Numbered from the stretch's first letter, positions 44,028 through 55,951 are shown. The stretch: DNA of 64,000 nucleotides from a bacterium ADurb.Bin157 (GCA_002070375.1 MWDD01000001.1:17425-81424), one strand, 5' to 3'. Notes: generated by a model not told the origin, from the sequence alone. Made by a program: numbers and translations.

Positions 44028-45980
44028 ATGGTTACCACCACACACGAATTTAAAACGGAAGCAAGACAATTATTGGATCTTATGATCCATTCTGTCTATT
44101 CCCAAAAAGAGATTTTTTTAAGAGAGCTGATTTCAAACGCCTCAGACGCTCTTGATAAATTAAAATTTGAGGCTTTGACCAATGATACCTACAGCTCTTT
44201 GACCGATGATTTGCACATTCGAATATCACCGGACACCACAGCTCAGACAATAACAATCAGCGACAACGGCATCGGCATGACCCACAATGAAATTGTTGAT
44301 TATATAGGCACCATAGCGAAGTCCGGCACAGGTGAATTTATCAAAAGCCTTAATGAAGCCAAAGATAAAAAAGGAATGTCTTCAGATCTTATTGGACAAT
44401 TCGGCGTCGGTTTTTACTCCGCATTTATGGTTGCGAACAAAGTAGAACTTACCAGCCGCAAAGCCGGCAGCAATGAAGCTTGGACCTGGTCTTCTGCAGC
44501 AGAAGGCAATTATACTATGTCCGAAGCCACCAGAGAGACAAATGGCACCACTGTCACTTTGCATCTTAAACCGAAAGCCGAAAATGATGAGACCCACGAA
44601 GATTTCACTCAAGAATGGACTATCAAACAAATAGTAAAAAAATATTCTGATTTTGTCGGTTATCCTATTAAAATGCAAATAACCAGAACTGAGGTTGAAC
44701 GCGACGAAAAAGGAAATCGCAAAGAAGGGGCAGAAGAAAAAACTATAATTGAAGATGAAGTTTTGAATTCAATGAAAGCAATTTGGCTTCGCCCTGAAAA
44801 AGAAGTCACCGAAGAAGAATACAAAGACTTTTACCGTCACATCAGTCACGACTGGAATCCGCCTCTTAAATGGATTAACTTCAAGGCAGAAGGCACTACC
44901 AACGAATTCACTTCTCTTCTCTACATTCCGGAAAAACCGGGGTTCGACATGTTTATGCCTGAAAAGAAGCATGGCATAAGTCTTTATGTTAAGCGCGTGT
45001 TTATCATGAATGACTGTGAAGAGCTGATTCCGGATTATCTGCGCTTTGTCAAAGGAGTTGTAGACTCAGAAGATCTTTCGCTCAATATTTCTCGTGAAAT
45101 ATTACAAAAAGACAGACAGATCCAAACAATTCGTAAGACAGTAATCCGAAAAGTATTAGATACCTTCAAAAAACTTTTAAAAGAAGACAAAAATAAATAT
45201 GTCGAATTCTGGAAAAATTTTGGTTCGATTATTAAAGAAGGCTTATTCAAAGAAACAAGTAACAGTGATAAAATCTTTGAATGCGCATTATTCAAAACTA
45301 CCGCTTCTCCAAGCGAATATTTTACCCTTGACGAATATATTGAACGCATGAAACCTGGACAAGAAAAAATTTATTTCTTGAGCGGGGAATCAAGGGAAGC
45401 AATTGAAAACAGCCCGCACATTGAGGCTTTCAGAGACAAAGGATATGAAGTTATTCTTTTAACTGATCCTGTTGATGAAGTGTGGCCGCAATACACAAAT
45501 GAATATAAAGGTAAAAAAATTAAAACGTCTGCCGGCTCTGCCAACGAACTCGGTTCAGAAGAAGAAAGACAAAAGACCACCGAAACATTAAAGAAAAAAG
45601 AAGAAGAATGGAAACAGCTTCTCGAGCTTATCAAAAACAAATTAGAAAAGCACGTAAAAGCTGTTAAGCTTTCTAGTGGCATGAGTACTTCCGCAGCCTG
45701 TCTGGTTAGCGGAGAAGGCGAAATGACACCGCACCTAGAAGCATTGCTCAGAGCATCCGGCAAAGACGTACCTGCTGTTAAGCGCACTTTGGAATTAAAC
45801 CCGACTCATCCGTTAATGAGCAAAATGTATGACGCTTTCACTCGAGATCCTAAGAGTCCTCAGATTGAAGAATATTCTGAGTTACTTTACGGACAGGCTC
45901 TTTTAGCCGAGGGCGGTCAGTTACCTGACCCTGCCGGCTTTAATCGAAAAATTGCAGAGCTTATGGCAGGTGCTCTATAA
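44028..45980 (+). CDS. htpG: molecular chaperone HtpG (Hsp90)
   Basis: EIFLRELISNASDALDK N-terminal ATPase motif. AAAGGAG ribosome-binding site 10 nt before the ATG at 44028. The ORF track's 44007 start is a TTG inside the ribosome-binding site. Confidence 0.9.
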   Translation: MVTTTHEFKTEARQLLDLMIHSVYSQKEIFLRELISNASDALDKLKFEALTNDTYSSLTDDLHIRISPDTTAQTITISDNGIGMTHNEIVDYIGTIAKSGTGEFIKSLNEAKDKKGMSSDLIGQFGVGFYSAFMVANKVELTSRKAGSNEAWTWSSAAEGNYTMSEATRETNGTTVTLHLKPKAENDETHEDFTQEWTIKQIVKKYSDFVGYPIKMQITRTEVERDEKGNRKEGAEEKTIIEDEVLNSMKAIWLRPEKEVTEEEYKDFYRHISHDWNPPLKWINFKAEGTTNEFTSLLYIPEKPGFDMFMPEKKHGISLYVKRVFIMNDCEELIPDYLRFVKGVVDSEDLSLNISREILQKDRQIQTIRKTVIRKVLDTFKKLLKEDKNKYVEFWKNFGSIIKEGLFKETSNSDKIFECALFKTTASPSEYFTLDEYIERMKPGQEKIYFLSGESREAIENSPHIEAFRDKGYEVILLTDPVDEVWPQYTNEYKGKKIKTSAGSANELGSEEERQKTTETLKKKEEEWKQLLELIKNKLEKHVKAVKLSSGMSTSAACLVSGEGEMTPHLEALLRASGKDVPAVKRTLELNPTHPLMSKMYDAFTRDPKSPQIEEYSELLYGQALLAEGGQLPDPAGFNRKIAELMAGAL

Positions 45981-45984
45981 CATA

Positions 45985-47115
45985 ATGGCAAAAAGATCAT
46001 ATCGCCGACATAACGGCATTTGCACTATCAAACTATTAGTCACACTCAAAACCAAAATGCCTAAAGGCGATTCTTTGTACATTACCGGCAATCTTCTTGA
46101 GCTAGGCGACTGGGAGCCGACGGGCAAACAATTACACCTTTGCGAAGACGGAACTTACAGCATTGAGTTTAACGCCCGCAAAGGGACTATTATCGAGTGT
46201 AAGCTCACCCGCGGCACCTGGAAAAGTCAGGGAATATACATTAACAACGGCAAACCGCCCGACAATTATGTAATAAAGGCCGATAAAGACAAAATCGTCA
46301 AAGTATCGATTTTGGACTGGCTCGACAAGAGAGTTATGGTAAGTGATCCCGTCAAAGGCAAGTTACTTGCCTTTGACAGGTTTACCTGCAAAGGCCTCAA
46401 ATATAAGCGCGGAATCGAAGTATGGCTTCCCGAGACTTATTCAGAAGCGCACCAGCCCTATTCTGTAATCTACACACATGACGGTCAAAATCTTTTCGAA
46501 CCCGGCAACGCTTTTGCCGGCATGGACTGGAAAGTTGACGAAACCGTAACAAAACTGTTAAATGAGGGAAAGATCAAAAATTGCATAGTTGTCGGGATTC
46601 CGAATTCGCCCGATCGTATGAAAGAGCTGAATCTCGAAACGACTTTAGGCAAGAGCTACGCTCAGTTCATAATAGAAGAAGTAATGCCTTTTGTGGAAAC
46701 AAAATTTAACGTATCTCGCAATTTTTCCGATTCGTTCATAATGGGCTCATCAATGGGAGGGCTCATGGCTTTTCAGATGGGCTTTACTTTTCCCCATAAG
46801 TTTGGCGGTGCCGCTTGCCTTTCATCTGCTTTCCAAAGCAAGTTCAGCAAAATAATAGAACAAGTTAAACATAGCGACCATCTTCCTCAAGGCTTACGTG
46901 TTTACATTGACACAGGTGAATACGAGAAAGAAATCAACGAGCGGGAAGACATCTGCGAGTGCTACTACAAAATGATGGAAATCCTTGTAAAGAGGGGTTT
47001 TAAAGAAGGTGAAAACCTTATGGGGTATTTTGATGAAAAGGCAACCCACACCGAGTCGGCATGGGCTATGCGTCTTAAAATTCCTCTGATGTTTTTACTG
47101 GGCAAAATCAAATAA
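45985..47115 (+). CDS. CBM20 (starch-binding) domain fused to PF00756-type esterase
   Basis: N-terminus LYITGNLLELGDWEP...GTW matches CBM20. C-terminus HDGQNLFEPG...GSSMGG matches the esterase. Likely ATG at 45985. Confidence 0.65.
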   Translation: MAKRSYRRHNGICTIKLLVTLKTKMPKGDSLYITGNLLELGDWEPTGKQLHLCEDGTYSIEFNARKGTIIECKLTRGTWKSQGIYINNGKPPDNYVIKADKDKIVKVSILDWLDKRVMVSDPVKGKLLAFDRFTCKGLKYKRGIEVWLPETYSEAHQPYSVIYTHDGQNLFEPGNAFAGMDWKVDETVTKLLNEGKIKNCIVVGIPNSPDRMKELNLETTLGKSYAQFIIEEVMPFVETKFNVSRNFSDSFIMGSSMGGLMAFQMGFTFPHKFGGAACLSSAFQSKFSKIIEQVKHSDHLPQGLRVYIDTGEYEKEINEREDICECYYKMMEILVKRGFKEGENLMGYFDEKATHTESAWAMRLKIPLMFLLGKIK

Positions 47116-47124
47116 GGCAATATA

Positions 47125-49716
47125 TTAAAGCCTTGCATCTATAATCGTTTTTAGTTTACCGGTACGACTGTTTCGGGTTATTTTTCCAGGTTTGTACCAT
47201 TCAATAGCAACAGTCATCCAGCCTTCATGCAAAGACTCGGCGATCTTATAAGACTCGTTTTTGAGTGCCTCTAACACAGCAACGTCAGAAACGGGTTTTT
47301 CAGCTTCAAGTCTGAGACAAAGCCGGTCTTTGCCTTCAAAGGTCTGAGCTTCAATCTGGAAAGACTGGCTGACAGGCAGCTTAGCAAGCCCTGCAGCCAC
47401 ATCAGCGGGCATAAGATTTATGCCCCCGATTACGATGAGTTCATCACATCGGCCCAGCAACTCAAACGATTTGCCTTTAAACCCGCACTTGCATGGTTCC
47501 GAGACAATCCATCGCCCCATGTCTCCGGTTTTATACCTAATTACAGGCATCAGTGTTTTATTCAAATTAGTTACAACTATTTCGCCCGCCTCATTAATTT
47601 CAGCCTGTTTACCGGTAATCGGCGAAATTATTTCACAGTAGCAATACTGGTCCAATACGTGGTGAATTGTGCCTGAAAGATGTTCGCACTGCCAACCTAC
47701 CGGCCCTGTATCAACGCAAGCATAGCCGGCAGAACGAATAATTTTTGCCCCTACAGTTTCTTTTAAAAACTTGCAGGTTTCAGGTCTTAGATGTTCACCG
47801 CCATATAATATTTTTTCGATCTTTATGTCCGATTTAAGTCGTTTAATTTCTTCCGCAAGTTTAATAATTATTGAAGGAAGCCCAACTACAGCATTCACAT
47901 CAAAAATTTTCAAATATTTCAAAGTGTTGCTTAAGTCAGAAGAACCGCCTACCGGCAAATTTAAGCATCCGAGATTCTCTAATGCTCTTCCGGCAACGTT
48001 AAAGCTTGTCCACAGATTGCCCGCAATAAACAAATTGGCAACTCTGTCAAATTTTGATAAACCGGCATTTCTGTAGATATCAGTCAGTAAATCTGTTACA
48101 TATTTGTATTCATCATTTGAATAGAAAGAAAATTTTGGGTTTCCGGTGGTTCCGCCCGAAGCGTATACATAAGCGTCAATTGGCTCTCTTGTTAATATAT
48201 CATTAGATTCGGGGGGTGAATTTTTGTAAAAGGTTTCTCTGTCAAGCAAAGGGAGTTTTTCAAAATTTTCAAATCCGCACCCGCCGGCCTTTTCAATAAT
48301 TGAGTTGTAATAAACAGAAGAATTAATTTGTGAAAGCAACTTTTCCACTCTGCTTTCGGGGGTATCTCTGTATTCAAGGGCAACCATATCTACTAAGCGT
48401 CTAAGCATAAATTCGCCCTCGTGAGGCGCTCCGTCGTGTCCTTCACTCATTCCGCCAATTTCGGTTACTCTTTTTGCTCCCAGTTCAAACAATTCGTCTT
48501 CAAGCCGAGCAAAACACTCAGGATATGCGCAAACACCTACTGTTTGCAAATATGATGACAAAGGCTTAACTTGAACAATTAAATCTTCTATCGAAGAAAT
48601 TCTTTTAATAAACAAAGTTCTGTTAAGGCATGAGACTTTAAACACGGGGTCATATTCAAGCACAAGCGTAAAACTGAAATCTTCCGGGCACTCAAGCCTT
48701 CCTTCGCCTTTAGCCTGCGACATTGTAGCCAGCTCGCGAACTTTTCTGATTTCTACTTTTTCATCGAAAGTTAAATTTCCCGCCGGCAAATCTTCGCTAA
48801 GCTTCAATAGCTCATCATAAAGATATTCCATCAACAAATGCGACGTTTTAATATCTTTGTCTAAAACATACACAACATGGGGCGAAGAGCAAGCCTGTTG
48901 ATCCCAGCGTGCCACATCCAATGCCAGTGAAGCGGCAATCTGAGGGGCAGTCGAAACCTTAATCTTTCGCCCTTCAATTACAGCAAAAGAAAATCTCGGG
49001 CCGTTTTCAACCAGCCTTGCAGCATCTCCCAATCTTGATTTAAGCGATTTCAAGGCCTCATACCCGCCCCAGAAAACAATAGTTGCAGGGGAATTAAGTA
49101 TCGGGTTCTCTATGCTTTCATCGCCGCCCTTCCACGAAATCGCCGCCTGATTGGGCCAAATAATACCGGCCGGGTCGTGCTCTTTTATGCTTTCTATGAA
49201 CAAAACAGGAAAAACCGTGTCTACACGAGACATTTTAAGAATATTTACATTTTTTGTGATTATACCTGATACAAGGCTATCCACAGCTCCGACAAAAACA
49301 TTGCCGGCAGTAAGATGCACTAAAACCCCACGGCTCTTGGCTTTGAGCTTGTAGCCCAAATGAGGCTGTTCTTCGCCCTCGTCAAATAATCGCAAAGAAT
49401 TAAACTCACCTTTAAGGCGTTTTTCCAGATTTTTTCTTGCGCAAATTTGACTTACCACATCAAACCCGGCGTCAGTCATTTCGGGGCTGAAATCTGTAAG
49501 TTTGGGCATAACCTCGGCCGCTTCAACCCTTAAGTGATAATTCGGATCTGCCCAAGCCGCAGAAACATTATCAAGAATATCAAGAATGCAGTCTATATCG
49601 GGGGTCGCCGCAATAGCAGCTCTCTCAAATGCTTCAGAAAGTATATCGGATATATTTTCTGAAGAAACAAATTCAGATTTGACAAATTTTCCAAAAACAC
49701 AGCATTTATTTTTCAT
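47125..49716 (-). CDS. fusion protein: LuxC-like acyl-CoA/acyl-protein reductase (N-terminal) plus PaaK/LuxE-like adenylate-forming domain (C-terminal)
   Basis: 863 aa. N-terminal aldehyde-dehydrogenase-like LuxC fold (about 1-450). C-terminal ASGGTTGNPKF adenylation motif and a PaaK-like body. Confidence 0.65.
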   Translation of the reverse strand: MKNKCCVFGKFVKSEFVSSENISDILSEAFERAAIAATPDIDCILDILDNVSAAWADPNYHLRVEAAEVMPKLTDFSPEMTDAGFDVVSQICARKNLEKRLKGEFNSLRLFDEGEEQPHLGYKLKAKSRGVLVHLTAGNVFVGAVDSLVSGIITKNVNILKMSRVDTVFPVLFIESIKEHDPAGIIWPNQAAISWKGGDESIENPILNSPATIVFWGGYEALKSLKSRLGDAARLVENGPRFSFAVIEGRKIKVSTAPQIAASLALDVARWDQQACSSPHVVYVLDKDIKTSHLLMEYLYDELLKLSEDLPAGNLTFDEKVEIRKVRELATMSQAKGEGRLECPEDFSFTLVLEYDPVFKVSCLNRTLFIKRISSIEDLIVQVKPLSSYLQTVGVCAYPECFARLEDELFELGAKRVTEIGGMSEGHDGAPHEGEFMLRRLVDMVALEYRDTPESRVEKLLSQINSSVYYNSIIEKAGGCGFENFEKLPLLDRETFYKNSPPESNDILTREPIDAYVYASGGTTGNPKFSFYSNDEYKYVTDLLTDIYRNAGLSKFDRVANLFIAGNLWTSFNVAGRALENLGCLNLPVGGSSDLSNTLKYLKIFDVNAVVGLPSIIIKLAEEIKRLKSDIKIEKILYGGEHLRPETCKFLKETVGAKIIRSAGYACVDTGPVGWQCEHLSGTIHHVLDQYCYCEIISPITGKQAEINEAGEIVVTNLNKTLMPVIRYKTGDMGRWIVSEPCKCGFKGKSFELLGRCDELIVIGGINLMPADVAAGLAKLPVSQSFQIEAQTFEGKDRLCLRLEAEKPVSDVAVLEALKNESYKIAESLHEGWMTVAIEWYKPGKITRNSRTGKLKTIIDARL

Positions 49717-49730
49717 ATAAGATTTCCCGC

Positions 49731-50858
49731 TTACTTTAGCAAATCAAGGGCATTAATAGCGCAGCCTTTATGTTTGGCCAAGCCCGCACGCCCAACTATT
49801 CTGAATGTTTTACCCGGTCTTTTGCATGGGCAGTTATCCTCGATAACCGCTTTATCGGTTGTCAGCAAAGAAATTGACGGGTAGGAAGACAAATAGGGTG
49901 TCATAAGATAAAGCAGCCCCTCTTCGCCGTCTTTAACCGGTTGCAATGTTTCGGGGTCAACAGCCATAGCCCTAGAGTAAATAGGAACATGAAGCCTGCC
50001 ATGTTCGCAGTCGACATACGGAATACCATGTTCGACCATTCCAAACAAATCTCTCAAGTTTTCACCGGGAATATTCAGAATTTTATTGATTCTCTTTTTG
50101 AAAACATCTTTTGTTACTTCAAGATTCTTATGCATTTTCCAACCGCCGCCGGTAATAATGAAAGAATCGCGGTTGAAATTCAGATTAATCCCTCTTTTTT
50201 CGAGCCAATCGCATACTTGCCACAAGTAAGCGGGGAAACCGAGAATTCTGACCGGTTCGGGTCTTTGCGAAAAATCTATAAGTTTTTTTGCGGTAGCTTC
50301 GAGATCGAAACTAAAATCATTCAATTTTTTATTCCATTTTATTGCATAAAAGACAGTTCTGTGAGCAGTCAAATCGGTTAGTAATTTATCGGAAAAAGCT
50401 GTTCCAACACTTTTAGCGTATTTGGGGTCATATGTAAAACACAAGTAGTTAACCTTTTGAGAATGATTTACCATACCGAGAGACGAAAAAATATTTTCTA
50501 CAATTTTTAAGATTCTTTTGTATGATCTGGCATCAAGTATTATAGAACTTTTTCGGCCTCCTGTGCCTGAAGATGTGAGTTCGAGTTTTACTTGCTTATC
50601 GGGAACAGAAGCCAGCTTAAACTCTTTAAAAACTGTCACGAGCAATGGCGGAATCTGTTCGGGCAAATAGTCGCTTTTAAAATCTATCAAGCCCGACAGG
50701 TTTAAAAAAGATTTAAATTCAGGACATTTAGAAACATGCCACCTTAAAGCTTCGTTCATAGCTTTATTAAACAATTCTTCGGTTTGTGGTGTATGATCGA
50801 ATGCCCGGGTAATATCGAAAAGTTTGCCGCAATTTTCAAAAGGTTTACCTTCAGCCAA
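49731..50858 (-). CDS. LuxE-family acyl-protein synthetase
   Basis: 375 aa. LTSSGTGG motif. Size and architecture of luciferase-operon LuxE. Confidence 0.65.
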   Translation of the reverse strand: MAEGKPFENCGKLFDITRAFDHTPQTEELFNKAMNEALRWHVSKCPEFKSFLNLSGLIDFKSDYLPEQIPPLLVTVFKEFKLASVPDKQVKLELTSSGTGGRKSSIILDARSYKRILKIVENIFSSLGMVNHSQKVNYLCFTYDPKYAKSVGTAFSDKLLTDLTAHRTVFYAIKWNKKLNDFSFDLEATAKKLIDFSQRPEPVRILGFPAYLWQVCDWLEKRGINLNFNRDSFIITGGGWKMHKNLEVTKDVFKKRINKILNIPGENLRDLFGMVEHGIPYVDCEHGRLHVPIYSRAMAVDPETLQPVKDGEEGLLYLMTPYLSSYPSISLLTTDKAVIEDNCPCKRPGKTFRIVGRAGLAKHKGCAINALDLLK

Positions 50859-52035
50859 GTCTCCACTCCTCGTCGAAATCAGGCTGGCAGCGGACTAGCA
50901 AATCATACCAGCATTTCATAAAAGCATCTAAAAATCTACGATTATTATCTACTAAGTTCATATCCATAAAATCAAGTTTCTCGAAAGACCTTGAAAATAT
51001 AAGATAATCCTCGCGCAACCCTTCGTCGTTCATTCTCATGCCGGGGAAATACGCGCAAGGCAAAAACTTAGCGTCTAAAGCAAGTCTTTGTCTTTCGGGA
51101 AGAAACGCACTAACCAGCATTTCAATGTATCTCATTCCTGATTTGGCGGCTTCTTCACAAAACCACATTAAGGTTTTTCTTAAATTTTTCCCTGAGAACC
51201 TGTAGCCCAGTATAACTCCGTTACCGTCTAAGGGATTAAAGTTTACAAAAAAATCAGCCGAATTGTCCTTTGCCGAATAAAGCATATTAGGGTCGGTAAA
51301 GGGAAAAAATACTCTTTGCATCATATCTTTGTTTTGATATTCATAAAATTTATCGGTTACGGCTTTTATATCGCTGCAAACATCAAAACATATAGGTCGG
51401 CCCATTTTTCGAGGGTCTTTTGATTCAAGCTCAATAATTTCGGGATCTTCAAGATTTAAATCAGTTTGCACAATTTTGTAAAAATCAAGCATTTGAGGAA
51501 TCAATTTAGGTGTTTTTCTTCGGAATTCAAGACATTTTGGGCCAAAATAGACCTCTAACCCGTGTGTTTCGAACGATTCCACTTTTCTGACGTTAGGGAA
51601 AATACCGGTCGATTTAAAATTTAAATGTTCAAGCACCATTTGCGGTGCAAAGCTGACGGTTCTGGTTGTGGCATAAATAGCATCGCAGGTTCTTGTTTTT
51701 TCGGTGAGTTTTTCAAGGCTGTCCTTTACCATCACCCGCATCACATCTTGCCCTCGAAATTCACTGAGCACAACAGCAGCGTAAGACTTGCCAAGTTTAT
51801 TGACCGGGTCTATCGCAAAAATAACGGAGCCAATAAGCCTGTCACCTATTTTTGCCACAGTCCAAAAGTAGCCGGGATCTTCAACTTTAGCCGCAACAAC
51901 TTCAGGGTCAGCTACTTCCGGTAGGGTATATTTTCCTTTATAGACTTCGATATAAAGGTTAATTATCGCATCAACATCTTCAATTGAAGCAGTAGAGAAA
52001 CGCACAATTCTATTGTCTTTAAGAATCAGTTGCAA
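50851..52035 (-). CDS. tandem GNAT-fold acyltransferase
   Basis: 394 aa. N-terminal GNAT core (IGSVIFAIDPV...) and a second GNAT-like half. TTG start. 8-nt overlap with luxE. Confidence 0.55.
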   Translation of the reverse strand: MQLILKDNRIVRFSTASIEDVDAIINLYIEVYKGKYTLPEVADPEVVAAKVEDPGYFWTVAKIGDRLIGSVIFAIDPVNKLGKSYAAVVLSEFRGQDVMRVMVKDSLEKLTEKTRTCDAIYATTRTVSFAPQMVLEHLNFKSTGIFPNVRKVESFETHGLEVYFGPKCLEFRRKTPKLIPQMLDFYKIVQTDLNLEDPEIIELESKDPRKMGRPICFDVCSDIKAVTDKFYEYQNKDMMQRVFFPFTDPNMLYSAKDNSADFFVNFNPLDGNGVILGYRFSGKNLRKTLMWFCEEAAKSGMRYIEMLVSAFLPERQRLALDAKFLPCAYFPGMRMNDEGLREDYLIFSRSFEKLDFMDMNLVDNNRRFLDAFMKCWYDLLVRCQPDFDEEWRLG

Positions 52036-52111
52036 ATATTATTTACCTTAACTGAAATATTCCGCACACATTACCTGAATATAACAAACACCGTCATAAA
52101 TATCAATAGAC

Positions 52112-52142
52112 AAAAACGCCGCCTTAGTTTAATTAAGGCGGC
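52112..52142 (-). terminator. rho-independent terminator after the hsp20 pair
   Basis: GCCGCCTTA-N7-TAAGGCGGC hairpin followed on the minus strand by U5. Confidence 0.6.
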
Positions 52143-52163
52143 ATTTAAGTTAATCAGATCTAA

Positions 52164-52565
52164 TCAGTGAATCTTTACGCTTATCATTCGGGGCTGCGTT
52201 TCTTTTGCAAAGGGCAAGAACACCTTCAACACGCCATTATTAAGCTCGGCATTGATGTTTTCCTGATCGACCGATTCTGCCAATTCAAATTGTCTGAAAT
52301 AATTTGAGGGCTCATATTCTCTCATCAAAAAACCGGTATCAAGATCAGGAGTAATGTGCCCCTCGATTGTCAATATGTTTTTATCTACTGACAACTTCAA
52401 ACCCTCTTTATCTACCCCCGGCAAGTCCGCAACAAGCTTCAACCCGTTTTCTTCTTCATAAATATCTGTTAATGGGGTTATAAATGAATCCGGTTCTCTT
52501 GTAACCTCGCGTTTAACCATCTGAGTTTCGTTATTTTTTGTATTAGGTATAGTTTTTTCAGCCAT
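52164..52565 (-). CDS. Hsp20/alpha-crystallin small heat-shock protein
   Basis: 133 aa. Alpha-crystallin domain, ...GVLKVFLPF C-terminus. AAGGAG ribosome-binding site. Confidence 0.85.
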   Translation of the reverse strand: MAEKTIPNTKNNETQMVKREVTREPDSFITPLTDIYEEENGLKLVADLPGVDKEGLKLSVDKNILTIEGHITPDLDTGFLMREYEPSNYFRQFELAESVDQENINAELNNGVLKVFLPFAKETQPRMISVKIH

Positions 52566-52603
52566 GACTTTTATCTCCTTTTCGTTTTTATTCAGGTCTC
52601 GCC

Positions 52604-53050
52604 TCAGTTAACTTTAATTGAAATTTGCTTCGGTTTCGCTTCTTCTGCCTTAGGCATTGTAATTTTCAAAATGCCGTTAACATATTCGGCTTCGACCTTT
52701 TCCGGTTCGATTGGCACAGGAAGCTCTATCGTTCTCACAAATTTACCCGCAGAGCGTTCGCTTCTGTGGATCTTTTCTTCGGGAATATCCAATTTGATTT
52801 TTTCACCGCTGATTGTGAGCTTGTCACGCAGGGCAGAAACTTTCAGATTTTCAACATCAATACCGGGCGCAAGCGCTTCAACAGTAATTTTTTCATCATC
52901 GGCAGACACATTCATCATGGGAAAATGCCTTCTGGATATTCCCGGCAAAAACGCATTTCTCGGATAGTTTTCCCAGGCATTCAACCGCGCGAGTTCACCA
53001 ATTTGACTTTGCAATTGTTCCATTTCTTTGAAAAAGTTCCATATAGACAT
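52604..53050 (-). CDS. Hsp20/alpha-crystallin small heat-shock protein
   Basis: Alpha-crystallin domain, GILKITMPK. Start set at the ATG at 53050, which has an AGGAGG ribosome-binding site 7 nt upstream. The ORF track's 53071 GTG start lies inside the ribosome-binding site. Confidence 0.85.
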   Translation of the reverse strand: MSIWNFFKEMEQLQSQIGELARLNAWENYPRNAFLPGISRRHFPMMNVSADDEKITVEALAPGIDVENLKVSALRDKLTISGEKIKLDIPEEKIHRSERSAGKFVRTIELPVPIEPEKVEAEYVNGILKITMPKAEEAKPKQISIKVN

Positions 53051-53118
53051 ATCTATTCCTCCTTTGACCACCCTTTCGAGGGCGTATTCAAATTAAATTT
53101 CATTCACGCAAATATATA

Positions 53119-53135
53119 TTGCAAACACCGTGCCA
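53119..53135 (-). promoter_or_regulatory. sigma-54 (RpoN) -24/-12 promoter TGGCACG-GTGT-TTGCA upstream of hsp20
   Basis: Exact match to the TGGCACG-N4-TTGCW consensus, about 70 nt upstream of the hsp20 ATG. Confidence 0.6.
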
Positions 53136-53251
53136 ACTTTTAAAACTCGCTTCCAATGCGGATTTAAGATTATTTAATGGAATGGCGCAACGCAGTCTGC
53201 AACGATGCGCTACGTTGCAACAAGACGTCTGTCGGTGGTATAATCCCGTAA

Positions 53252-54469
53252 ATGAAAAAATACGACACAATTGTAATAGGTGCGGGTCCCTCAGGCATTA
53301 TGGCAGCGATCACCGCAACAAAGAACAACAAAAAATGTTTACTGATTGAACGCAACAGTTACGTCGGCGCAAAAATTTTAGCCAGCGGCGGCGGACGATG
53401 CAACTTAAGCAACACATTACCGACCGAAGCTTTCGTAAGTATGTTTAGCCGCGAAGGCAAGTTCATGTTAAGCAGCTTAAAAACATTCGGAAGCAAAGAA
53501 TTAACGGAATTTCTGGCCTCTGTCGGCGTTAAATGCCACGCTCCCGACGGGTTCAGGATTTTTCCCACAACCCACGATTCTAAAACCGTTGTAAACGCTT
53601 TAACCCAAGAGTTACAGCGTTTGAACACCGACATTCTTATGTCTCATCGGGTTACTGAAATAAACAACCGTAACGGCAGCTGGGAAATAGATAACGCTTA
53701 TTTTTGCAACAAACTGATTATTGCCACCGGCGGTCTTGGTTTTATGCACTTGGGGACCGAAGGCGACGGCTACAAATTCGCGACCGCAACCGGGCACAAA
53801 ATTACGAAGCTTTTTCCGGCAATGCTGCCGATTGAGACAAAAGAAACCTGGGTTAAAAACTGCCGCGCGGACACTATCGGCAAAGCGGTCGTTCAGATTA
53901 ACCTGCCAAAACACTGCAATAAAAAGGCTGTCGGAGATTTAATTTTCACATCGACAGGCATCAGGGGGCCTGTCGTATTAGATTTTGCGCGAGAAATAAC
54001 GCCTTTAATCGATGAATACGGCGAGGTTCCTTTGCTGATCAATTTGGTTGGCGGGCTGAACGAAGAACAAATAAGAGCTAAAATTAAAAGTTTGCCGCAA
54101 AACAAAATTTCCCTGCCGCTGCCCGAGATGTTAAACACATTGGTGCCGGAACCGCTTTGCGTAGAATTATGCAAATTAGTCGGGATCGATTTTTCTTGCA
54201 CTATCAGTAAAGTTGAAAAGATAAAAAGAGACAAACTGATAAAATTACTCGCAAAGACCCCTCTTACCGCAATAAGCTGCGGAGGGTTCAAAGAAGCCAT
54301 GGTTACGAGGGGCGGAGTGAGTCTTAAAGACATCAATTGCCAAACCTTAGAAAGCAAAATAAGTAAAAATTTATATTTTTGCGGCGAGGTATTAGACCTA
54401 GACGGGCCGTGCGGGGGATATAACCTTCAATGGGCATTCACGAGCGGATTTATAGCAGGATCAAATTAA
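53252..54469 (+). CDS. HI0933/YhiN-family FAD-dependent oxidoreductase
   Basis: 405 aa. IVIGAGPSGIMAA dinucleotide-binding motif, GGGRCN. Consensus -35/-10 (TTGCAA-18-TATAAT) ends 7 nt before the ATG, so the mRNA is probably leaderless. Confidence 0.75.
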   Translation: MKKYDTIVIGAGPSGIMAAITATKNNKKCLLIERNSYVGAKILASGGGRCNLSNTLPTEAFVSMFSREGKFMLSSLKTFGSKELTEFLASVGVKCHAPDGFRIFPTTHDSKTVVNALTQELQRLNTDILMSHRVTEINNRNGSWEIDNAYFCNKLIIATGGLGFMHLGTEGDGYKFATATGHKITKLFPAMLPIETKETWVKNCRADTIGKAVVQINLPKHCNKKAVGDLIFTSTGIRGPVVLDFAREITPLIDEYGEVPLLINLVGGLNEEQIRAKIKSLPQNKISLPLPEMLNTLVPEPLCVELCKLVGIDFSCTISKVEKIKRDKLIKLLAKTPLTAISCGGFKEAMVTRGGVSLKDINCQTLESKISKNLYFCGEVLDLDGPCGGYNLQWAFTSGFIAGSN

Positions 54470-54540
54470 TTTTTTTAGGGTATTGTACTTAAAAAAAACC
54501 TGTGGTAGGATTGCCCTATCAAAATTCGAGGTTAGAGATT

Positions 54541-55458
54541 TTGCTTATATCTACGCTTGTTGACGACTTTTTAACCGTCATAGAAAAAGAAAAAAGAATG
54601 TCTGAGCACACCGTTCGCGCTTACAGGAATGATTTAACCGTATTTTGCGACTGGTTGGCAGAAAATGGCATTTTTGATGCTATTGAGCTCGACAGCTTGA
54701 GTCACGCAAAAATCAGATCATACTGGGCAAAGCGCCGCACCGAAGGGCTTTGCGCATTAAGTATGAGGCGCGGGCAGTCGGCTTTACGCGGTTTCTTTAA
54801 ATACGCGATGCGCAGAAAAGAAATAACCAAAAATGCAGCTGAGACTATGGAATCGCCGAAAACACGCAGAGGCCTGCCAAAAGCGCTAAGCGAAAACATC
54901 ACGGAGACCTTTTTAAACGCACCGGACAAGTCGACTTTAATGGGGCTAAGAGACAGAGCAATACTTGAAACAATTTATGGCAGCGGATTGCGCGTGTCGG
55001 AAGCATCAAATTTAACCTATGACAACGTTGATTTTTCAAATCAAATTGCGCGAATTACCGGAAAAGGAAACAAAACCAGATTAGCACCCATGACCCCGTC
55101 GTCTTGCGAGGCTATAAGATCATATTTAGAGGCAAGAAACAATAAATTGCCTGAACTTAAAGATGTAAAACACATTTTTTTAAATAAAGCAGGAACCCAA
55201 TTAAGCACGAGAAGCATCGGAAGAATGATAAACAAATACACGTTGCAAAGCGCTTTAATGCTTCATGTAACGCCGCATCAGTTCAGACACAGCTTTGCGA
55301 CGCATCTGCTGAATAACGGAGCGGACATAAGAGCGGTTCAAGAAATGCTTGGACACGCGAATCTTTCAACTACACAAATATACACGCAAATCAGCAAAGA
55401 AAAGCTGATGCAAACGTATCAGCTTTGCCACCCGCGGTCGGGGCATAAAGATTTATGA
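54541..55458 (+). CDS. site-specific tyrosine recombinase XerC/XerD family
   Basis: R...HxxR...Y catalytic residues (RHSFATHLL, GHANLSTTQIYT). TTG at 54541 with a GAGGT ribosome-binding site preferred over the GTG at 54502. Confidence 0.8.
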   Translation: MLISTLVDDFLTVIEKEKRMSEHTVRAYRNDLTVFCDWLAENGIFDAIELDSLSHAKIRSYWAKRRTEGLCALSMRRGQSALRGFFKYAMRRKEITKNAAETMESPKTRRGLPKALSENITETFLNAPDKSTLMGLRDRAILETIYGSGLRVSEASNLTYDNVDFSNQIARITGKGNKTRLAPMTPSSCEAIRSYLEARNNKLPELKDVKHIFLNKAGTQLSTRSIGRMINKYTLQSALMLHVTPHQFRHSFATHLLNNGADIRAVQEMLGHANLSTTQIYTQISKEKLMQTYQLCHPRSGHKDL

Positions 55459-55528
55459 TAAAAAGACTAAATAAATGTTGCCAATGTTCCGATTGATATT
55501 GAAGAAACTAAAAAACGGGGGCAAAAAA

Positions 55529-55951
55529 ATGTTTGAACGAGTAACCAACACAACAACTTTACAGCTTTTACAAAAGGGCTTGGATGTGTCTTCAAAGAGA
55601 CAGTCTGTTATATCGAACAACATTGCAAACGTAAATACTCCCGGCTACAAGAGACAATTTGTTACTTTTGAAGAAGAAATGGCAAAAGTCATCGACGGAG
55701 TTTCAGACTTGCGCGGACTTCGCAGCGACGTTAGGCATTTCCCTATAAATGATATTTCGCACAAGGCTTGTGAGCCTGTAACAGTCACTGACAAAGGGCG
55801 CATCATGCGCAATGACAAGAATAATGTAGACATAGACATGGAAATGGGAGATCTGGCAAAAAACACTATGAGTTACCAAATATTTGCCAACAGAATTTCA
55901 GGAATGTTCGCACAGCTAAACGATGTAATTGTCAGAGGAGGTAAAGCATAA
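55529..55951 (+). CDS. flgB: flagellar basal-body rod protein FlgB
   Basis: SNNIANVNTPGYKR rod N-terminal motif. ATG at 55529 preferred (141 aa) over the track's 55475. Confidence 0.85.
   Translation: MFERVTNTTTLQLLQKGLDVSSKRQSVISNNIANVNTPGYKRQFVTFEEEMAKVIDGVSDLRGLRSDVRHFPINDISHKACEPVTVTDKGRIMRNDKNNVDIDMEMGDLAKNTMSYQIFANRISGMFAQLNDVIVRGGKA

Follow-up and report, generated by a model that had tools for sequence, protein, structure and literature searches.

What would a LuxC-LuxE pair do where no luciferase gene accompanies it? This question is raised by a stretch of 64,000 nucleotides (nt) from bacterium ADurb.Bin157 (GCA_002070375.1, MWDD01000001.1:17425-81424; hereafter the window), a member of the phylum Candidatus Riflebacteria (Rifleibacteriota). 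At 47125-52035 on its minus strand, three co-directional genes encode, in the order of transcription, a GNAT acyltransferase, a LuxE-type acyl-protein synthetase and a fusion of a LuxC-type reductase with a PaaK-like ligase, together termed the triad here. An earlier interpretation made from the DNA alone (the sequence-only reading), which had given the same open reading frame coordinates, proposed an activation, reduction and acyl-transfer system of an architecture without characterised precedent. The general idea of such a system ending in an aldehyde is judged reasonable, but the claim of novelty does not hold, as the leupeptin (leup) operon also has a LuxE, a LuxC-ligase fusion and a GNAT. 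By sequence comparison, the window cluster is a distant, reduced relative of the leupeptin-type pathway and not a wholly new system. We favour, with moderate confidence, the reading that the triad specifies a ribosome-independent and non-ribosomal peptide synthetase (NRPS)-independent pathway of the leupeptin type, the product of which would most likely be a small N-acylated amino-acid or dipeptide aldehyde.

The LuxC, LuxE, PaaK-like and GNAT assignments of the sequence-only reading all passed the Pfam thresholds, and the motifs TSSGTGG and GGTTGNPKF that it had named are present. The fusion gene (47125-49716, minus strand) encodes 863 amino acids (aa), of which residues 37-442 (48391-49608) match Pfam LuxC at 263.9 bits (cut-off 21). 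Residues ~454-862 (47131-48357) form the adenylate-forming ligase domain, which scored 32.1 bits against AMP-binding (cut-off 29.9) and 28.1 bits against AMP-binding_C_2 (cut-off 25) and matched the PaaK structure PDB 4r1l with an E-value of 5e-31. The second gene (49731-50858, minus strand; 375 aa, TTG start) matched Pfam LuxE at 168.8 bits (cut-off 24.9), and the first (50851-52035, minus strand; 394 aa, TTG start) matched Acetyltransf_1 at 25.1 bits (cut-off 20.7), in its N-terminal half only. The NCBIfam equivalog cut-offs were missed widely by LuxC (119.5 versus 750 bits) and LuxE (144 versus 550 bits), and by a wide margin also for PaaK; on these scores, therefore, the triad proteins are family members rather than orthologues of the luminescence enzymes. 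The three genes themselves are evidently real, since the databases hold a 99%-identical 863-aa protein and orthologues of the fusion with 47-92% identity in many Riflebacteria and Ozemobacteraceae assemblies.

Judged by alignment, the catalytic residues are intact in the LuxC domain, in LuxE and in the ligase domain. In the fusion, C276 (within WDQQACSSP) aligns with the catalytic Cys296 of LuxC (PDB 7xc6_A), the ligase motif SGGTTGNPKF occupies residues 520-529 with the P-loop SGGTTGNPK at 520-528, and the TGK lysine of the PaaK-like C-terminal subdomain, K854 (the A10 lysine), is kept; C276, the ligase P-loop and K854 were invariant in an alignment of 13 fusions from diverse phyla. LuxE has its P-loop TSSGTGG at residues 95-101, and its K241, R357 and C366 align with K238, R355 and C364 of P. 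phosphoreum LuxE (PDB 7xc6_E). The residue roles of LuxC-LuxE are known from the cryo-EM complex 7xc6, in which C364 of LuxE bears the acyl thioester (PMC9157457); the codon of the window's C366, aligned with this self-acylation cysteine, lies at 49761-49763. The alignments thus support for the triad the relay used in bioluminescence, that is, a LuxE adenylate, a thioester on Cys366, a thioester on Cys276 and, after reduction with NADPH in the luminescence system, the aldehyde. The identity to the luminescence pair is 28-29% and the key residues all align, whereas the window cluster differs in having its LuxC fused to a ligase, an added GNAT and no luxAB or luxD. The absence of these last genes, which the sequence-only reading had pointed out, was borne out for all genes within ~10 kb on either side of the triad.

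The GNAT protein had been called a tandem acyltransferase. The duplication is not visible in its sequence, where Pfam recognised the N-terminal half alone and hhalign gave no significant similarity between the two halves, but it is predicted by structure. The AlphaFold2 model of the 394-aa chain (pLDDT 90.4, pTM 0.87) shows in both halves the GNAT order beta1-alpha-beta2-4-alpha3-beta5-alpha4-beta6-7, and Foldseek returned GNAT-fold matches that include the tandem GNATs 2wpw, 3ddd and 2i00. The modelled chain would accordingly hold two GNAT folds, at residues ~1-165 (nt 51541-52035) and ~215-355 (nt 50971-51393), followed by a C-terminal helix. A family signature, VYxGxYTLPxVxxP, was found at residues 31-44.

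As described in a 2026 preprint, the leup cluster of K. oxytoca (NC_016612.1) consists of an MFS transporter, a LuxE/PaaK-family protein, an acyl-CoA reductase, a protein of the phenylacetate-CoA-ligase family and a GNAT, all adjacent, and this Klebsiella preprint was the only item that linked the terms when the literature on leupeptin or protease inhibitors was searched together with LuxC, LuxE and PaaK. Secondary descriptions citing Li et al. 2020 (Angew Chem 59:17872) state that the operon (leupA-D plus the MFS transporter; K. oxytoca/michiganensis, Photorhabdus and Xenorhabdus) makes leupeptin, N-acetyl-Leu-Leu-argininal. Leupeptin-type aldehydes are further described as precursors of pyrazinone signals in Klebsiella, and the leup operon as narrowly distributed. 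A tblastn search of plasmids with the window fusion returned relatives over the full length, carried by IncF plasmids of Salmonella and megaplasmids of Streptomyces, and a search seeded with the Salmonella protein identified the 'acyl-CoA reductase' of Klebsiella michiganensis as an 801-aa LuxC and AMP-binding fusion of the same domain order as that of the window. The locus reads MFS (419 aa), LuxE (375 aa), fusion, PaaK-like ligase (444 aa) and GNAT (305 aa), which, matched by gene order, corresponds to the five leup components one after the other.

The window and leup thus have in common a LuxE-type synthetase, a LuxC reductase with a PaaK-like ligase fused to its C-terminus and a GNAT belonging to one subfamily, in a tightly packed operon with conserved catalytic Cys, Lys and P-loop residues and no luciferase. 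An extra stand-alone PaaK-like ligase and the MFS exporter are confined to leup, its GNAT has 305 aa versus the 394-aa two-domain protein of the window, and its order is LuxE-fusion-ligase-GNAT as opposed to GNAT-LuxE-fusion. The identities between the window and Klebsiella leup proteins are only 22-33%, and 22-37% when leup-like proteins are included. Over the full length, the window LuxE is 33% identical to the Klebsiella and 37% to the Streptomyces protein (211-254 bits), above the 141 bits obtained with luminescence LuxE, and the fusions are 25-27% identical. The ligase domain is ~30% identical to the fused and the stand-alone leup ligases alike. The window GNAT family matched the Klebsiella leup GNAT with an hhalign probability of 95% (E 2e-8; N-terminal domain, with VYxxxYxxPxxxxP shared), and the window GNAT aligned with the Streptomyces GNAT over the full length in BLASTP (23%, E 6e-27).

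The Streptomyces cluster concerned, on plasmid p1 of Streptomyces sp. W1SF4 (NZ_CP034351.1), resembles the window in its GNAT-LuxE-fusion order and in a 381-aa GNAT that is homologous over its full length, with identities of 37% for LuxE and 27% for the full-length fusion, and differs by having an AMP-binding ligase and an MFS transporter upstream. Its proteins resemble those of Klebsiella leup (40-53%; LuxE 53%, fusion 40%, ligase 41%) much more than those of the window. Because the leup operon and this cluster share the module set, the triad does belong at the level of architecture to a pathway known from relatives, distant ones only, which the sequence-only reading had named as an outcome that would overturn its proposal. 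Neighbour-joining (NJ) trees of the domains gave strong support to four clades, namely leup, Riflebacteria together with the six-gene type described below, a second Riflebacteria type and unfused LuxC. In the ligase tree, the fused and stand-alone ligases of leup grouped together (85%), which fits a duplication that took place within the leup lineage and is missing from that of the window.

On this basis, we infer which substrates are used, in what order the steps run and what is made. The GNAT would N-acylate the alpha-amine of an amino acid, from acetyl-CoA or another acyl-CoA, and the PaaK-like domain would adenylate a carboxylate, either to join the N-acyl amino acid to a second amino acid, by a leup-like logic, or to make the acyl-CoA donor for the GNAT. 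LuxE would then adenylate the terminal carboxylate and park it as a thioester on its C-terminal Cys366, from which the acyl group would move to Cys276 of the LuxC domain and be released as the aldehyde by NAD(P)H reduction. The mapping is taken from leup, where the module set and the structure of the product fit each other: one GNAT would account for the N-acetylation, two ligases for the two amide bonds, and LuxE plus LuxC for the ATP- and NADPH-dependent reduction of the terminal carboxylate. With one ligase fewer and no exporter in the operon, the product is expected to be shorter than the tripeptide leupeptin, and an N-acyl dipeptide aldehyde would be the most economical reading of such an operon; if instead the ligase domain supplies the acyl-CoA donor of the GNAT, an N-acyl amino aldehyde would result. 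In either case, the product may work within the cell or exit by a different route.

The leupeptin-type reading is supported by the module set held in common with the described leup operon and by the gene order held in common with the Streptomyces cluster, as well as by the LuxE scores, the GNAT signature, the intact catalytic residues, the operon structure and the joint conservation of the three genes, and several observations weigh against it. A tblastn survey that covered the 64-kb window and 10 kb to each side in more than 30 Riflebacteria loci found no stand-alone second PaaK-like ligase and no linked MFS exporter; an exporter does occur in one three-gene locus of Wallbacteria (L039) and in the six-gene form. 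The triad is phylum-wide and sits in a conserved housekeeping context, which is unusual for an accessory natural-product cluster. The identity to leup is low, and whereas the LuxE pairwise scores favour leup, those of LuxC do not: the window's LuxC domain, at 22% identity to Klebsiella leup, 26% to Streptomyces and 28% (133 bits) to P. phosphoreum LuxC, is no closer to leup than to luminescence LuxC. In the NJ trees, the window clade stands apart from the leup clade; a single origin of the fusion is compatible with these trees, but since the clades are separate and the deep nodes weak (14-72% support), neither orthology nor a single origin is established. The substrate side of the analogy is conjectural, and the per-gene roles in leup come from secondary descriptions and from gene order.

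The similarity of the LuxC domain to the P. phosphoreum protein, which equals that to any leup LuxC domain, and the retention of all catalytic residues of the LuxC-LuxE acyl relay would also suit a lux-like fatty-acid reductase, in which LuxE and LuxC give a fatty aldehyde for a lipid, wax, alkane or signal while an N-acyl group is made or attached by the PaaK-like domain and the GNAT. Also in line with it are unfused LuxE-LuxC pairs that have FabG/SDR neighbours in non-luminous bacteria, and LuxE-LuxC pairs in flagellin glycosylation islands beside fatty-acid synthesis genes. We nevertheless consider this reading unlikely: the operon and its surroundings lack lipid genes, whether for a LuxD-type acyl-ACP thioesterase, an ACP, FabG or another such protein, the window LuxE is nearer to its leup than to its lux counterpart, the invariable linkage of LuxE/LuxC to a second adenylating domain and an amine acyltransferase is left unexplained, and the sole characterised system with exactly this module set makes a peptide aldehyde. 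An N-acyl amino or peptide aldehyde thus has better support than the fatty-aldehyde or N-acyl signalling-lipid chemistry envisaged in the sequence-only reading.

The housekeeping context itself would be accounted for by a primary-metabolic bypass to an N-acetyl amino-acid semialdehyde, parallel to ArgA/ArgB/ArgC and with adenylation and thioester reduction in place of the kinase/phosphate route. The triad occurs in every adequately flanked Riflebacteria locus, mostly at the same chromosomal place and with no linked transporter, and the metagenome-assembled genome (MAG) JADFXM01 has a separate, exporter-linked LuxE/fusion cluster besides its triad, which suggests a distinct role for the latter. 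Such a bypass would, however, leave the second adenylating domain unexplained, has no known precedent and finds no linkage to amino-acid biosynthesis genes, and we rate it as decidedly improbable. Lower still do we place a modification of flagellin glycans or of another cell-surface or protein target, which appears highly improbable. It is prompted by the position of the triad, divergent beside xerC-(hslVU)-flgB-flgC in many Riflebacteria, by the continuation of the window into fliF, fliG, fliH and fliI, and by LuxC/LuxE homologues in the flagellin glycosylation islands of Aeromonas and Enterobacteriaceae. But transcription of the triad runs away from the flagellar operon, genes of the pse/neu, maf or glycosyltransferase kind are absent nearby, and in UBP16, Wallbacteria, Elusimicrobia and Xenobia its neighbours are unrelated, for example yggT-divIVA and TPR protein genes. 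The arrangement xerC-hslVU-flgBC is an old housekeeping synteny, known from Bacillus.

The genome-neighbourhood survey of the fusion, which the sequence-only reading had suggested, found the triad constant in Riflebacteria and recurring in other phyla. Among 84 loci fetched after tblastn, GNAT, LuxE and the fusion stood together in every Riflebacteria locus with enough flanking sequence, in more than 30 genomes of the phylum, and the triad looks like a core trait of Riflebacteria; outside the phylum, it was met in groups such as Wallbacteria, UBP16, Xenobia and Elusimicrobia. In 27 loci of several phyla, only these three genes were kept together, and clustering of the neighbours of 30 three-gene loci revealed no fourth conserved partner. 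The recurrent neighbours (TPR proteins, DivIVA/YGGT, a GIY-YIG protein, a cyclase and an M50B peptidase) were lineage-specific and mostly on the other strand or unrelated. In a scan of one genome per species, 335 genomes were found to encode a relative of the fusion; they belong to many phyla, mostly anaerobic and uncultured, and show at least three gene arrangements.

A bolder proposal, which we offer tentatively and hold to be possible rather than probable, is that the triad represents a minimal and ancient form of the leupeptin logic, belonging to the core genome of Riflebacteria and scattered over deep-branching anaerobic phyla. Its product would be a new, short aldehyde of the N-acyl amino or dipeptide type, or the pyrazinone formed from such an aldehyde, with an internal regulatory or signalling role, such as the control of the cell's own proteases, instead of that of a secreted weapon. 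If this is true, the six-gene and exporter-linked clusters described below would constitute a so far unexploited family of peptide-aldehyde pathways, NRPS-independent and spread over several hundred species. In the case of the window, the claim to novelty is lowered to that of a variant of a known pathway type, and the main value lies in the breadth and diversity of the leupeptin-type family, the enzyme logic, including the unusual LuxC-ligase fusion, being present in the 335 species-representative genomes as against the narrow distribution described for leup. Leupeptin-type peptide aldehydes are widely used protease inhibitors. The pathway family is a concrete and testable source of new small aldehyde inhibitors or signals, and the comparison corrects the database labels 'long-chain-fatty-acyl-CoA reductase' and GO term 'bioluminescence' carried by fusion-type proteins.

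The relatives of the fusion differ in their company. The Streptomyces p1 cluster (locus L086:2070-10871) comprises the AMP-binding ligase, the MFS transporter, the 381-aa two-domain GNAT, LuxE and a fusion of 846 aa that carries the annotation 'acyl-CoA reductase, GO bioluminescence'; directly downstream of the cluster, a caspase-family peptidase is encoded on the opposite strand. No characterisation of its product was found. Since streptomycetes are the classical leupeptin producers, the cluster may represent, by analogy, an actinomycete route to leupeptin-like compounds. A leup-type operon of LuxE, an 802-aa fusion, a PaaK-like ligase and a GNAT is present on conjugative IncF plasmids of Salmonella enterica (CP054717.1, L085:5719-11477; CP053580.1), with a fusion 66% identical to the Klebsiella michiganensis protein. 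Its location on conjugative plasmids suggests mobility of the leupeptin-type pathway within the Enterobacteriaceae.

The closest relatives of the window fusion outside Riflebacteria (35-41% identity) belong to six-gene clusters, which resemble the triad in that LuxE is always adjacent and the GNAT is of a related type, and which add an MFS_3 exporter, two PaaK-like proteins and an N-terminal HATPase_c_2 domain on the GNAT. The set consists of the HATPase_c_2-GNAT (475-499 aa), the exporter, a divergent PaaK-like protein of 450 aa, a PaaK-like protein of 430 aa, LuxE and the LuxC-PaaK fusion, and so contains four adenylating units; the HATPase_c_2 domain is anti-sigma-kinase-like. Such clusters were found in Hippea alviniae (L003:1554-10700), Desulfofustis limnaeus (L004:1397-10697), Rhodopseudomonas palustris JSC-3b (L051) and at twelve further loci (L048, L052, L054, L055, L057, L060, L062, L063, L066, L069, L077 and L082), with hosts that also include Bacteroidales, Geobacter and others. 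The gene order is permuted between lineages while the gene set is kept. No characterisation of a six-gene cluster was found, and their occurrence in cultured strains means that they can be tested.

A third arrangement (L092:742-9312 and L093:3045-12995) combines an unassigned 474-494-aa protein, LuxE, a fusion, an MFS_3 exporter and a likewise unassigned protein of 371-379 aa. Its fusions (P0113 and P0118) are more divergent, and L093 has an AMP-binding protein in addition. The exporter-linked cluster of the Riflebacteria MAG JADFXM01 is of this kind (L092) and coexists there with the triad (L073). The unfused pairs of a LuxE-like protein and LuxC in non-luminous bacteria, as on plasmids of Priestia megaterium (L089:2727-5260) and Pantoea (L090:2730-6122), lie beside an SDR/FabG-type reductase gene, accompanied in Priestia by an ABC transporter, and their LuxE-like protein is annotated 'long-chain fatty acid--CoA ligase'. 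Their LuxC proteins grouped with luminescence LuxC (100% support in the LuxC tree); by phylogeny, these pairs are another luciferase-less LuxCE class, distinct from the fused type.

As for the expression of the triad in the window, the earlier description of three overlapping genes applies to one junction: the GNAT and LuxE genes overlap by 8 nt (TTGGCTGA), whereas LuxE and the fusion gene are separated by a gap of 14 nt. With this spacing and with a promoter and a terminator on the 5′ side, the three genes are predicted to form one operon. The putative promoter that the sequence-only reading had named, TTGATA-17 nt-TATATT with a TG extension (52078-52106, minus strand), is sigma-70-like with 10/12 consensus matches and ends 43 nt upstream of the GNAT start codon; it proved to be the best consensus match of the region, one in which promoter-like sites are not enriched (19 observed versus 13.8 +/- 3.8 expected). 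It stands directly behind an intrinsic-terminator-like hairpin (52114-52146, minus strand; 13-bp stem with 6 G-C pairs, then a T run) that closes the second hsp20 gene upstream. An Rfam scan of 46800-53400 (E <= 0.1) gave no riboswitch or leader, and PADLOC gave no defence-system match for any of the three triad proteins.

The genes within ~10 kb on either side encode HtpG, a CBM20-esterase, two Hsp20 proteins, an HI0933-like flavoprotein, XerC, flagellar proteins, AccA/AccD, a P-type ATPase, a creatininase-family protein and a sigma-70 factor. The putative esterase gene (45952-47115, plus strand; PF00756, 83.6 bits) converges on the fusion gene with a gap of 9 nt, and the TTG listed as its start codon overlaps the end of htpG; the N-terminus of the protein has a weak match to the starch-binding family CBM_20 (22.1 bits, just below the cut-off). 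Because this gene adjoins the triad elsewhere only in a 92%-identical relative (L006), it is probably unrelated to the operon. On the other side of the triad, flgB follows directly after xerC (54502-55951), whereas hslV-hslU sit between the two in Ca. Ozemobacter (L001) and several other Riflebacteria; hslVU have been lost or moved from this interval in the lineage of the window and in that of L018.

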